Shown here: one piece after another, positions 23,398-26,881 of the stretch
Numbering within the stretch: position 1 is the stretch's first letter
Layout of the letters: every line of letters begins with the position of its first letter
NCBI GenBank assembly: GCA_016782495.1
Contig: JADHYL010000001.1
Location: 34,360-98,359, forward strand
DNA from: Candidatus Omnitrophota bacterium
GTDB taxonomy: Bacteria > Omnitrophota > Gorgyraeia > JABMRN01 > RBG-13-46-9
Direction: 5' to 3'
Length of the DNA: 64,000 nt
Made by a program: the position numbers and the translations under genes
Notes under the pieces: model-generated
The model's database searches: none
Told to the model about the DNA's origin: nothing
What the model saw: only the letters and a program-made list of their open reading frames with translations

Positions 23398-25131
23398 TTA
23401 ATCCTCCGTCGTAATTCTTAAAACCTCTTCCAAGGTTGTCTGACCGGAAGCGAAATTTTCCAATGCGCTATCCCTTAACAACATCATGCCTTGCGAGAGG
23501 GCATATTTTCGTATTTCGTCGCTCGAAACCCTTTTTATAATCATATCCCTTATCGTGTCGTCTATGGTCAGTGTTTCCAAAAGCCCCATGCGACCAAGAT
23601 AGCCGGTATTGTTGCAGCGCGGACACCCCTTACCATGATAAAAGGGCCTTCTTTTCATAAGTTTGTCTATGTCTACGCCGCCGCCGATCCTCTCAAACAC
23701 TGATCGGGGAATGTCAATAGGCTCCTTGCATCGCGGGCATATTTTTCGGCACAGTCTTTGCGCTGCCGTAAGAACGAGACTCGCCGAAACGAGGAACGGC
23801 TCAACCCCCATGTCAATAAGCCTTGTTATAGCGCCTATCGCGTCGTTTGTATGCAGTGTACTCAAGACAAGCTGGCCTGTTAGGGATGCCTTGATGGCTA
23901 TGTCGGCGGTTTCAAAGTCTCTGATCTCACCAATCATAATGATATCCGGGTTCTGCCTTAGAATGGATCTTAGTCCGCTGGCAAACGTCAACCCTATATC
24001 CGGATTTACCTGAATCTGGGTTATCCCTTCGACTTCATACTCGACAGGTTCTTCTATTGTCACGATATTTACCTTCGGTGTATTCAGATTGTTAACGATG
24101 GAGTAAAGTGTGGTTGATTTTCCGCTTCCGGTCGGCCCCGTTAATAAAATCATGCCGAAAGGTCTCTCCAGTGCTTTTTTAAAGGCTTTTAAAGGTTCTC
24201 GTAAAAATCCCAGCTTTTCCAGTCCGATGCTCAAATTTGACTTATCAAGTGCTCGAAGAACAACTTTGTTGCCAAATGCTATCGGTAGAATACTGACTCT
24301 AAAATCTATCTCTTTCTGGCCTAATTTTATTCTGAAGCGCCCGTCCTGAGGAACCCTTGTCTCTGTTATATCTAACTTGGACATGATCTTGAGCCTTGCA
24401 ATAACCGCGTTCTGGTTCTTTTTGGGTAGCCTCAATGCCTCCTGTAGGGCACCATCGATTCGGTATCTCACGCGGAGGTCCTTTTCGCACGGCTCGATAT
24501 GAATGTCACTCGCCCTGCCTCTTAAGGCTTCGTTCAGTATCAGCGAGACAATCTTTACAATAGGGGCTTTTTGGCTTTCCTCGGTGATTTCGCCGACGTC
24601 TAATTTTTCCTCTTCGACAACCTCCACGCTCTCGGTCCCTGCATCCTTTACGATCTTAGCCATGTCTTCCGTCGGCGCCCCGTATATTTTCCCCAGGGCA
24701 TCTTTTATGTCGTTATCGGCGGCTATAATAACCTCGATGTTATCAGCGTTACGCGAGAGAATTGTTTTTACGTCGTCTATGGCTAAGACGTCTGTCGGAT
24801 CCGACATGGCGATTGTCAGGGTATTTGCGATTTTTGATATGGGGATAAGATTATGCCTTAGGGCGATCTTTTCTGGAACTAGCTTCGCTATCTTGGGATC
24901 GATTTTATATTTTGACAAGTCAAGGGGGGGAATGTGGAGTTCTTCACTTAAAAAAATAACCAGGTCCTTGTGCGTTATAATATTTTCTTTTATTAAAATT
25001 TTTCCTAGGCTGCCGCCCGCTTTTTTACGGATATCCAATACCCTTTTAAGCTGATCCTCGCTTATGAGCTTCTTCTCTTTGAGAATATCCAGTAATTTAT
25101 CTGATAGTGTTTTTTTCTCCGTTGGCATCAT
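23398..25131 (-). CDS. pilB: PilB/GspE-type assembly ATPase, paralog 1.
   Basis: N-terminal GSPII_E_N domain, Walker A LLTGPTGSGKSTTLYS, Asp/His boxes, and a tetracysteine motif CRKICPRC...GCPRC. Confidence 0.9.
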   Translation of the reverse strand: MMPTEKKTLSDKLLDILKEKKLISEDQLKRVLDIRKKAGGSLGKILIKENIITHKDLVIFLSEELHIPPLDLSKYKIDPKIAKLVPEKIALRHNLIPISKIANTLTIAMSDPTDVLAIDDVKTILSRNADNIEVIIAADNDIKDALGKIYGAPTEDMAKIVKDAGTESVEVVEEEKLDVGEITEESQKAPIVKIVSLILNEALRGRASDIHIEPCEKDLRVRYRIDGALQEALRLPKKNQNAVIARLKIMSKLDITETRVPQDGRFRIKLGQKEIDFRVSILPIAFGNKVVLRALDKSNLSIGLEKLGFLREPLKAFKKALERPFGMILLTGPTGSGKSTTLYSIVNNLNTPKVNIVTIEEPVEYEVEGITQIQVNPDIGLTFASGLRSILRQNPDIIMIGEIRDFETADIAIKASLTGQLVLSTLHTNDAIGAITRLIDMGVEPFLVSASLVLTAAQRLCRKICPRCKEPIDIPRSVFERIGGGVDIDKLMKRRPFYHGKGCPRCNNTGYLGRMGLLETLTIDDTIRDMIIKRVSSDEIRKYALSQGMMLLRDSALENFASGQTTLEEVLRITTED

Positions 25132-25141
25132 TCCTCATTAT

Positions 25142-26881
25142 CTATTTTATGGCGATATCCTGCTCCCCTACCGTTACGCGCAATACTTCTTCGATGGTCG
25201 TAACCCCACTCAACACTTTCTTGATGCCGTTTTCTCTTAATGTCTTCATCCCCTCTCTGCGCGCCTGTTCTCTTATCTTGTGCTCCTGGGCTTTTTCAAG
25301 AATGAGGCCTCGAATGTCGGCCGAGAGCTCAAGTGCTTCAATGAGGCCCACCCTTCCCTTGTAGCCAGTATTTTGACAGGCCTTGCACCCTTTTCCTTTG
25401 TATGCAACGTTCTTGCCGCGTGGATTATTAAGCTGAAGTTTTTTTGCGACTGCCTCATCAATCCTGTACGATTCTTTGCATGCTTCGCAAATCTTGCGCA
25501 CAAGCCTCTGGGCAGCGACAAGAATCATACTCGATGTTATGAGAAAGGGCTCCACCCCCATATTGACCAATCGCACGATGGAACCGCTTGCGGTCGTCGT
25601 ATGGAGCGTGCTTAAGACCAGGTGCCCCGTAAGGGCTGCTTTTATGGCTACGTCAACAGTTTCAAAGTCTCTTATCTCCCCAACCATTATTATATCGGGA
25701 TCCTGCCTCAAGAATGATCGAAGCGCGCTGGCAAAGGTAAGCTTGAGCTCCGGTTTTACGGTAAGCTGGTTTATGCCTTCCAGCTGGTATTCCACGGGGT
25801 CCTCGGCAGTAATTATATTCTTTTTTGGTGAATCCACATACTTAAGAACTGAATAGAGCGTCGTAGTTTTGCCGCATCCTGTCGGACCGCATGAAAGAAT
25901 CATTCCGTGCGGTCTCATCGCGGCTTTCTTTATGCTTTCCAGCGGCTCCTTTTCAAAACCCAGTTTATCCAGGTCGAGAGTCGCCTGGGATTTATCTAAT
26001 ATCCTCAAGGCAACCTTTTCTCCGTTATGCGAGGGCAAAACGGAAATCCTGAAATCGATTTCTCTGTTTTGTATTTTGGCTTTGAAGCGGCCGTCTTGTG
26101 GAAGTCGTCTTTCTGCAATTTTTAAATTTGATATGACTTTTAGCCGGGAAACAAGCGCCGGGTGTATCTTTTTGGGAGAACGCTGGAATTCTTTTAATAC
26201 GCCGTCGATCCTGTATCTAACGCGGAGCGTACCCTCCAAAGGCTCTATCAGAATATCGCTTGCCCTGGCCTTGACCGCCTCTGCAAGCAGCATGTTTGTG
26301 ATCTTTACTACCGGCGCATCCTGAATAAGTTTTATAAGCTGGGTAGAGGACATGGTATCCTCGACCTCGTCGATTACTTCTATATCGCCTTGCGGTTCTA
26401 TTTCACCGATAATCTTCTCAATGGCTTCGTGCGCTCCGGCCTCGTAGTACTCGGCTATAGCTTCGTCAATATCCCTGTCGCTTGCGATAACAACGCTTAT
26501 TTTACAACCCGTAATCGCTGCGAGGTCATCTGTTGTGAATACATTTAACGGGTCGGCTATTGCTACCGTCAAATAGACGCCTATCTTTGAAACGGGCATG
26601 ACGCGGTAGTTTTTCACGACTTTCTTCGGGATGAGCTTTATCACCTCGGACGAAATTTTGTAGCGCGAAAGATCAATCGGCGGAATACCCAGTTCCTGGC
26701 TCAGGGCCGAAACAAGTTGTTTTCTTGGTACGACCCCCATACTGACCAGGATGTCAATTAATTTTCCTCCTCTTTCTTTCTGTATTTCAAGGGCTTTCTT
26801 GATGTCATTTTCTACGAGAAGTTTTTTCTCGCAGAGGGCTTTCATGATTCTGTCCTTTATCGATAAGGTGTTTTCTTTCAT
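25142..26881 (-). CDS. PilB/GspE-type ATPase, paralog 2.
   Basis: Same architecture as paralog 1: N-terminal GSPII_E_N domain, Walker A ILSCGPTGCGKTTTLYS, tetracysteine CEACKE...GCKACQ. About 45% identity to paralog 1 by eye. Confidence 0.85.
   Translation of the reverse strand: MKENTLSIKDRIMKALCEKKLLVENDIKKALEIQKERGGKLIDILVSMGVVPRKQLVSALSQELGIPPIDLSRYKISSEVIKLIPKKVVKNYRVMPVSKIGVYLTVAIADPLNVFTTDDLAAITGCKISVVIASDRDIDEAIAEYYEAGAHEAIEKIIGEIEPQGDIEVIDEVEDTMSSTQLIKLIQDAPVVKITNMLLAEAVKARASDILIEPLEGTLRVRYRIDGVLKEFQRSPKKIHPALVSRLKVISNLKIAERRLPQDGRFKAKIQNREIDFRISVLPSHNGEKVALRILDKSQATLDLDKLGFEKEPLESIKKAAMRPHGMILSCGPTGCGKTTTLYSVLKYVDSPKKNIITAEDPVEYQLEGINQLTVKPELKLTFASALRSFLRQDPDIIMVGEIRDFETVDVAIKAALTGHLVLSTLHTTTASGSIVRLVNMGVEPFLITSSMILVAAQRLVRKICEACKESYRIDEAVAKKLQLNNPRGKNVAYKGKGCKACQNTGYKGRVGLIEALELSADIRGLILEKAQEHKIREQARREGMKTLRENGIKKVLSGVTTIEEVLRVTVGEQDIAIK

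Follow-up and report, generated by a model that had tools for sequence, protein, structure and literature searches.

Type IV pili are generally described as being extended by one hexamer of PilB. In Acinetobacter baylyi, the one well-studied exception, which carries the two PilB-family ATPases PilB and TfpB, both single mutants are impaired, a double mutant has no pili and over-expressing one of the two does not make up for the other (PMC8213720, Ellison et al. 2021), and it has been proposed that TfpB initiates extension and that PilB extends processively (PMC8213720; PMC11656802). A 2024 review (PMC11656802) counts the sharing of one machine by two extension motors, and their possible mixing, among the unresolved questions. 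Here, a 64-kb stretch of DNA from a Candidatus Omnitrophota bacterium (assembly GCA_016782495.1, contig JADHYL010000001.1, positions 34,360 to 98,359; hereafter the window) was analysed, in which two adjacent genes for PilB-type extension ATPases, referred to as PilB_up and PilB_dn, follow a gene for a small stand-alone MshEN-domain protein (solo MshEN). Omnitrophota are uncultured nanobacteria, some of which are suspected to be predators or parasites, and pili are probably central to their contact with hosts. As a whole, the comparisons presented below suggest that the paired PilBs of Omnitrophota extend the known dual extension-motor pilus systems.

The two PilB genes are co-oriented on the minus strand, 10 nt apart, and code for proteins of 579 (PilB_up) and 577 (PilB_dn) amino acids (aa), whose motifs are given in Table 1. 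Both possess an N-terminal MshEN domain (PF05157, formerly GSPII_E_N/T2SSE_N; Pfam expect values, E, of about 1e-19 and 7e-20) and a T2SSE core (PF00437; E of 9e-138 and 3e-133, with 459 and 444 bits vs. a gathering cutoff of 24.9). The Walker A motif is intact and the tetracysteine zinc motif is present in each of them. Aligned by BLASTP over 571 aa, the two proteins are 49% identical, with 70% positives, and the identity varies by domain (40% for N1D, 18% for the linker, 58% for N2D and 54% for the C-terminal domain, CTD), the N1D and the linker diverging most. An earlier sequence-only reading of the window had described two such open reading frames (ORFs), with their spacing, N-terminal domain, Walker A and tetracysteine motifs, and had noted that they differ substantially elsewhere; the coordinates, domains, motifs and pairwise identity found here all agree with this description. 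The best PDB matches of PilB_dn are the full-length PilBs 3JC8, 6OLJ and 5TSG (E of about 1e-167). The pair has an identical arrangement in two assemblies of this organism that are independent of each other, one a 101-kb ENA contig and the other a Logan contig. Public annotations already hold the pair, unremarked, as 'GspE/PulE family' or 'TadA'.

Catalytic residues were mapped by aligning the window pair with six orthologue sets and by placing them on the PilB of Geobacter metallireducens (GmPilB) via PDB alignments and the description of McCallum et al. 2017 (PMC5424180). The Walker A Lys (GmPilB K331), the Asp-box Glu (E357, PVEY), the catalytic Glu (E395, GEIRD), the Arg fingers (R257/R271/R286), the T411 and H420 equivalents and the four Cys are kept in both PilBs and in every orthologue, Walker A and Walker B being intact in the window pair. 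The sole systematic difference at the catalytic motifs is LTGH in PilB_up and the reference PilBs vs. LTGQ in PilB_dn, at the first His-box histidine (H413 in GmPilB, H222 in PaPilT). The second histidine, equivalent to GmPilB H420 and contacting the gamma-phosphate, is retained in PilB_dn, and PilB_up has both. The sequence-only reading had raised the loss of the catalytic Glu/His boxes in one copy as a point that would speak against it: such a loss affects the first His-box histidine of PilB_dn, replaced by Gln, but neither its catalytic Glu nor its second His.

This replacement is a feature of the dn lineage. Among the 120 closest dn homologues, the position is Q or E in 119, never H, the motif not being found in the remaining one; in an alignment of 132 sequences, Q or E occurs in all 21 dn-clade members and H in all 111 other PilBs. 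Glu in place of the usual Gln was observed in a minority of the close dn homologues. Concerning the four most divergent related loci described below, TGH is retained in two basal dn copies (L025:5849-7564 and L026:2777-4486) and TGQ is found in the other two; since these basal copies keep TGH, the change from His to Gln or Glu is derived within the dn lineage and younger than the pair itself. In GmPilB, T411 is sandwiched by H413 and H420 at the contact between packing units, and of the His box only 'a histidine' is highly conserved across the family (PMC5424180), so that a Gln at the first site does not bar PilB_dn from the PilB/GspE family. Judged by their sequence features, both proteins belong to the PilB/GspE clade, the first His-box histidine of PilB_dn being the one tested feature that is absent. 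In PilT, the H222A change is reported to reduce twitching, to lower the velocity of retraction and to make the motor dissociate more from the machine, and H229A to abolish function and twitching (PMC10187167). By analogy with PilT H222A, across subfamilies, PilB_dn should be an active motor with altered kinetics.

The pair is conserved well beyond the window. A scan of one genome per species provided six loci from Omnitrophota-type metagenome-assembled genomes (MAGs; L003-L007 and L009), which share the order GGDEF-like gene, PilT, solo MshEN, PilB_up, PilB_dn, PilC, with one-to-one best matches; the non-Omnitrophota matches of the same scan (Bdellovibrio, Opitutaceae, Uhrbacteria and others) have a single PilB. 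Four deep loci (L023-L026), from contigs that carry the 50%-identity representatives most divergent around each clade, all show a [solo MshEN]-PilB-PilB-...-PilC arrangement, their up and down paralogues being 39-43% identical. The solo MshEN-PilB-PilB-PilC core is thus present in all ten related loci with enough flanking sequence. A further solo MshEN gene precedes pilC in three of the deep loci (L023, L024 and L026), two deep loci have a gene for a GGDEF-AAA-HEAT protein of 1325-1388 aa inserted after the pair (L024:8724-12890 and L026:4497-8474), and two pilin genes follow pilC in related loci. One member of the deep dn clade, P0187, carries an Omnitrophota label. As for L003 and L006, they are titled 'uncultured Planctomycetia'; they are gene-for-gene syntenic with Candidatus Omnitrophota MAGs and show 55-91% protein identity to the window, and the label of these two records is probably wrong.

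In neighbour-joining (NJ) trees of the ATPase core, ten up copies fall into one group and eleven dn copies into another, never mixed, with bootstrap values among close relatives of 0.92 for the up clade and 0.60 for the dn clade; a single duplication is the likely origin of the pair. The ratio of non-synonymous to synonymous substitution rates (dN/dS) is 0.036-0.063 for PilB_up and 0.039-0.050 for PilB_dn in three unsaturated comparisons, drawn from the closer pairs among L004, L005, L006 and L009 (window vs. L003 was left out, dS being saturated). Both copies are under strong purifying selection. The sequence-only reading had spoken of a tandem duplication and had proposed to see whether close relatives carry one or two copies: a genuine full-length pair in one operon it is, but not a local or recent one, since two copies are kept in positional orthology at all ten related loci, with only 39-43% identity between paralogues in the deepest.

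The same reading had considered tandem full-length extension ATPases to be rare. Eighty ordinary PilB loci (39-56% identity), retrieved in a metagenome scan with the dn alignment through generic patterns (GEIRD, Walker A), served as background. Eight of them have two PilB-like ORFs within a few kb and four have them directly adjacent, these counts being lower bounds as many contigs are short. Tandem pairs are uncommon, then, but their rarity had been overstated, since seven of the eight two-PilB loci (L083:5926-9414, L068, L088, L091, L093, L097 and L106) belong to a second, independent and conserved paired family. A homologue search with a human-gut member assigned it to Lentisphaerota, including the cultured Victivallis vadensis, Victivallaceae and Lentisphaeria MAGs, in which the genes are annotated 'GspE/PulE family protein'. 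These pairs often have a pilB-pilT-pilB arrangement, with TGH in both copies, intact motifs and 42-54% identity, and no solo MshEN gene passed the filter used there. In the NJ tree they join neither Omnitrophota clade: the second-position copies group together (bootstrap of 1.00), as do five of the seven first-position copies (0.94), L068_1 and L088_1 forming a separate pair (1.00).

Doubling was also found within single proteins. Fused double-core PilBs of about 1000 aa, with an MshEN-core-core order, make up at least 14 of the best 150 representatives (P0122, P0124-P0129, P0132-P0134, P0137, P0138, P0142 and P0150; locus L022:5187-8225), and they cluster with a Candidatus Uhrbacteria PilB at a bootstrap of 1.0. 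Both cores are usually intact, most of the deviating Walker A motifs being GPTS[AS]GKTT variants that retain the Lys; only the first half of P0125 is degenerate, with a dead core in which the Walker A Lys is replaced by Thr (GPTGSGTTT) and the Asp-box Glu by Gln (EDPVQL). The fused gene of L022 stands alone, with no pilus neighbours. On these comparisons, the doubling of PilB is recurrent, taking the form of a gene pair in at least two cases and of a fusion in one, and still a minority state. No paper on paired PilBs in Omnitrophota, PVC (Planctomycetes-Verrucomicrobia-Chlamydiae) bacteria or Lentisphaerae was found, the searchable literature being incomplete.

In the window, the PilB pair belongs to one complete type IVa pilus cluster, whose PilC, PilMNOPQ set, secretin and PilT are each present once; beyond PilT and the pair, no other T2SSE ATPase was found in the 64 kb. 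From the GGDEF-like gene through pilC, the junctions measure 1-10 nt and carry Shine-Dalgarno-like sequences. A promoter scan, which is a consensus match only and gave total matches not clearly above those of shuffled sequences, placed its best candidates 5' of the GGDEF-like and pilin genes.

The solo MshEN protein, directly upstream of the pair and not mentioned in the sequence-only reading, matches the MshEN domain in Pfam with an E value of 2.5e-19. It has its own family, with at least 120 relatives of 146-221 aa among the matches listed, all from Omnitrophota where named and annotated 'hypothetical' or mis-called 'PilB'. These proteins are closer to each other than to the N1D of either PilB, and their dN/dS is 0.012-0.043. 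An AlphaFold2 model built with 32 family members (predicted local distance difference test, pLDDT, of 85.8) has as best match 5HTL, i.e. the N-domain of Vibrio cholerae MshE with bound cyclic di-guanosine monophosphate (c-di-GMP), at a template modelling (TM) score of 0.77-0.83 and a root-mean-square deviation of 2.4 Å, followed by the GSPII domains of PilF. According to this model, the 151-aa protein has the MshEN fold.

The MshEN modules were scored against two motifs of 24 residues each, with a 5-residue spacer between them, in the relaxed form [RKPN]hGxxhhxx[GAS]hhxxxxhxxxhxx[QNKRYWST] (Wang et al. 2016, PMC5013675). The solo proteins reach 10/11 and 9-10/11, missing only position 1 (first motif, Gln or Thr; second motif, Leu) and one hydrophobic slot, and G13, Q34, G42 and Q63 are invariant in their family, so that the Gly and Gln sites of c-di-GMP contact are better kept there than in the N-domain of either PilB. 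The N1Ds reach 8-10 and 9 in PilB_up and 7-10 and 8-9 in PilB_dn, that of PilB_dn being the most degenerate in the window lineage (8/11 and 8/11), and the Gln of the second motif is Glu in both PilB N1Ds and in all orthologues. The MshEN literature reports that changes of Arg9 shift the affinity at most about fivefold and that a change of any conserved hydrophobic residue causes a more than 10-fold loss. In the case of PilF GSPII-B, the tightest binder known (dissociation constant of 6 nM), the second motif naturally starts with Leu, the K167L mutant was crystallised with c-di-GMP bound, a single change from Q to E costs 77-158-fold in affinity and the double change abolishes binding (PMC11731258). 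Read against these data, c-di-GMP sensing, if present, would lie mainly in the solo MshEN protein rather than the PilB N-domains, and this putative binder is the most likely candidate for a c-di-GMP-sensing accessory of the PilB pair.

The gene heading the putative operon codes for a protein with a GGDEF fold (Pfam, 1e-28), in which the GGDEF motif is degenerate, reading DKDLF, DRNTF, TGDTF or SGDTF across six orthologues, and no RxxD I-site was seen by eye in the window protein. GG[DE]EF is also absent from the other GGDEF proteins linked to such cassettes (L024:3412-4812 and the two large inserted genes mentioned above). An active diguanylate cyclase at the head of the operon was rejected on these grounds.

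Taken together, these results lead us to hold, with moderate confidence, that the locus codes for two anciently duplicated, co-transcribed and non-redundant PilB motors working on one type IVa machine, with the solo MshEN protein as a c-di-GMP-sensing accessory. PilB_up would be the canonical extension motor and PilB_dn a kinetic or regulatory variant, with its diverged N1D and, in this sub-lineage, Gln or Glu for the first His-box histidine at an inter-subunit contact. Both would be active ATPases serving the machine made of the one PilC, PilMNOPQ set, PilT and pilin locus, and they might divide the labour on the same platform, e.g. between initiation and processive extension or between fast and slow modes, the conserved solo MshEN protein possibly gating one or both motors by sensing c-di-GMP. 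The best-supported inference is that the two ATPases work non-redundantly on the same machine; for such a pair, PilB/TfpB of A. baylyi would be the parallel among extension motors and PilT/PilU among retraction motors.

Several points weigh against this interpretation. Deep nodes of the NJ tree have bootstrap values of 0.07-0.18 on a star-like backbone, and NJ does not resolve the up and dn clades as strict sisters. Of the contig, about 101 kb long, the window represents 64 kb, and the counts of one PilC and two PilBs apply to the window only. The relaxed published motif is fully satisfied by none of the three MshEN modules, and a local source of c-di-GMP is missing because the only GGDEF gene of the operon is catalytically degenerate. 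The His-box change was not the original reason for retaining the pair, since the dn copies of L025 and L026 have TGH.

Among the rival explanations, the one that survives best has PilB_up and PilB_dn co-assembling obligatorily, e.g. as an alternating A3B3 hetero-hexamer in which the His-box variant of PilB_dn provides a built-in active-site asymmetry. The strict co-occurrence and adjacency of the genes fit such a ring, as do the single PilC and the junctions, which are 10 nt long or overlapping and favour equimolar co-translation. The dn-specific change lies at the very contact between packing units, where T411 stands between H413 and H420; natural two-core fusions exist elsewhere, P0125, by its dead first core, showing that a ring can be viable with cores of two types, and PilB-TfpB hetero-oligomers are listed as an open possibility (PMC11656802). 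However, experiments argued against hetero-hexamers of PilT and PilU, the closest studied paralogue pair (PMC6762196), and the fused proteins are an independent lineage and not orthologues, so that we regard a mixed ring as unlikely. A broader version, in which an obligate two-component extension motor would be either a mixed up/dn ring or two hexamers handing over on one PilC, with c-di-GMP sensing moved to a free-standing MshEN protein docking in trans, is given a similarly low probability. If true, no natural PilB motor of a hetero-oligomeric or 'split-sensor' kind would precede it, and the doubling of PilB would be a recurrent solution, seen in the Omnitrophota pair, the Lentisphaerota pair and the fusions of candidate phyla radiation (CPR) type.

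Less probable again is an assignment of the two motors to two fibres, one PilB driving a retractile type IVa pilus and the other a different pilin set or a pseudopilus resembling that of a type II secretion system (T2SS), as with MshE/PilB of V. cholerae or PilB1/PilB2 of Clostridium perfringens. A dedicated ATPase per system is the commonest reason for the presence of several PilBs (PMC11656802), and the window contains several pilin-like genes (the 110-aa pilin, the 142-aa and 715-aa N_methyl proteins and the PilX_N protein), in addition to the two pilin genes found after pilC in related loci. In the known cases, though, each ATPase has its own PilC and machinery, at separate loci, whereas here a single PilC, PilMNOPQ set and secretin are present and the two PilBs stay together across deep divergence. 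The idea that one copy, most plausibly PilB_dn, is not a motor but a regulator, scaffold or brake at the PilC/PilM docking site, or a signal relay, in the way of Myxococcus xanthus PilB for exopolysaccharide (EPS), seems to us slightly more doubtful still. It can draw on a substitution at a position otherwise invariant among the sampled PilBs and on the degenerate c-di-GMP motifs of the PilB_dn N1D; but PilB_dn and its more than 120 homologues strictly conserve every residue known as essential for binding and hydrolysing nucleotides, the whole-protein dN/dS is as low as that of PilB_up, basal dn copies keep TGH and PilT H222A is still a working motor. These two explanations, by separate filaments or by a non-motor copy, agree less well with a single set of PilC and secretin and with the full catalytic conservation. 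Finally, a redundant recent duplicate or an assembly duplication artefact, which near-identical copies would have betrayed in the terms of the sequence-only reading and for which nothing speaks beyond the adjacency of two similar genes, is practically excluded by the 49% identity, which is low enough to make the pair old paralogues, by its recovery in independent assemblies and at ten syntenic related loci, and by the strong purifying selection on both copies.

The features of the pilus cluster are listed in Table 1. From about 9.2 to 35 kb of the window, every gene lies on the minus strand, in the transcription order mreB-mreC-mreD-PBP2-rodA, GGDEF-like gene, PilT, solo MshEN, PilB_up, PilB_dn, PilC and 110-aa prepilin, followed by a TPR protein, a family-2 glycosyltransferase (GT2), PilM, a PilN-like protein, PilO, a PilP-like protein, PilQ, RNase G and three minor-pilin-like genes. 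The retraction ATPase is identified as PilT by its T2SSE core, the lack of N1D and tetracysteine motif, and an AIRNLIRE-type motif.

Table 1. Coordinates of the PilB pair, its pilus cluster and other features of the window
Feature	Coordinates	Strand	Size (aa)	Remarks
mreB-mreC-mreD-PBP2-rodA	29954..35113	-		Elongasome genes
Candidate operon promoter	29909..29937	-		Sigma-70-like, TTGACA-17-TATACT, 11/12; 5' of the degenerate-GGDEF gene
Membrane HAMP-GAF-GGDEF protein	28415..29845	-		First gene of the putative operon; degenerate active site DKDLF
PilT-type retraction ATPase	27343..28413	-	356	T2SSE 4e-49; GATGSGKST, GEMRD, TGHLVFATLH, AVRSLIRE
Stand-alone MshEN-domain protein	26884..27339	-	151	Directly upstream of the PilB pair
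PilB_up	25142..26881	-	579	Canonical PilB-type extension ATPase; N1D/MshEN, N2D, CTD; Walker A GPTGCGKTT, Asp box EDPVEY, GEIRD, His box LTGHLVLSTLHT, CEAC...CKAC
His420 codon of PilB_up	25622..25624	-		Counterpart of PilB_dn Gln420
PilB_dn	23398..25131	-	577	Paralogous PilB-type extension ATPase; Walker A GPTGSGKST, EEPVEY, GEIRD, His box LTGQLVLSTLHT (Gln for first His), CPRC...CPRC
Gln420 codon of PilB_dn	23872..23874	-		First His-box histidine site
PilC platform protein	22173..23393	-	406	Only PilC in cluster; starts 4 nt past the end of PilB_dn
Promoter-like site of the prepilin gene	22132..22160			
Prepilin	21699..22031	-	110	N_methyl motif; own promoter-like site
TPR protein	19584..21620	-	678	Between pilin gene and pilM
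Family-2 glycosyltransferase	18810..19574	-		Between pilin gene and pilM
PilM	17714..18733	-		
PilN-like	17039..17713	-		By position and orthology in L003/L006/L009
PilO	16430..17038	-		
PilP-like	16072..16467	-		By position and orthology in L003/L006/L009
PilQ secretin	14407..16059	-		
Minor-pilin-like N_methyl protein	12503..12931	-	142	
Minor-pilin-like N_methyl protein	10351..12498	-	715	Unusually large for a minor pilin
PilX_N protein	9182..10354	-		Minor-pilin-like; adjoins the N_methyl genes
dcw-type cluster	47762..62187	-		FtsA-like, Ddl, MurB, MurC-type ligase, MurG, FtsW, second class-B PBP

As for the surroundings of the cluster, the elongasome genes directly precede the pilus operon in the window and also in L003, L005, L006, L009, L023 and L024, and the RNase G gene follows the operon in the window. 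The housekeeping content of the window further includes the dcw-type cluster as well as tRNA synthetase and proline-biosynthesis genes.

The Omnitrophota cassette represents a natural, deeply conserved and tightly linked pair, with a defined substitution at the active-site interface of one copy and a separate MshEN sensor-like subunit, and is suited to questions of hetero-oligomerisation, kinetic specialisation and trans-acting c-di-GMP control. With the canonical single PilBs (M. xanthus 3JC8; Geobacter 5TSG/6OLJ/5ZFR), it shares the domain order, all catalytic motifs and full-length similarity; these are present in single copy and have both His-box histidines, and the M. xanthus N1D scores 9/11 and 11/11 on the relaxed motif. 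PilT and PilU (PMC6762196) resemble it in that a paralogous secondary ATPase co-operates with the primary one on the same machine, but they are retraction motors without N1D, whereas both Omnitrophota copies are of the extension type, with N1D and tetracysteine motif, and a separate PilT is present.

Concerning the solo protein, it is like the MshEN receptors (V. cholerae MshE-N, 5HTL; Thermus thermophilus PilF GSPII-B, 8PDK) in its predicted fold, motif Gly, hydrophobic residues and both Gln, and like PilF GSPII-B in a second motif opening with Leu; unlike them, it is free-standing instead of forming the N-terminus of an ATPase, and it has Gln or Thr instead of Arg or Lys at position 1 of the first motif. 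The Lentisphaerota pairs and the fused double-core PilBs also show a conserved doubling of the PilB core, the two copies being almost always intact, but they are independent lineages in the tree and have TGH in both copies.

Finally, A. baylyi PilB and TfpB are described as having diverged about as much as PilB from GspE or MshE (PMC8213720), vs. 49% identity for the Omnitrophota pair, and their known regulator is the inhibitor CpiA, vs. a stand-alone MshEN protein encoded beside two adjacent and co-oriented genes. Orthology of either Omnitrophota copy with TfpB is unlikely, as both sit among PilBs of the same neighbourhood in a tree without TfpB. What the A. baylyi and Omnitrophota systems have in common is a set of two apparently competent PilB-family ATPases, tied to one pilus machine in A. 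baylyi and probably so in Omnitrophota.

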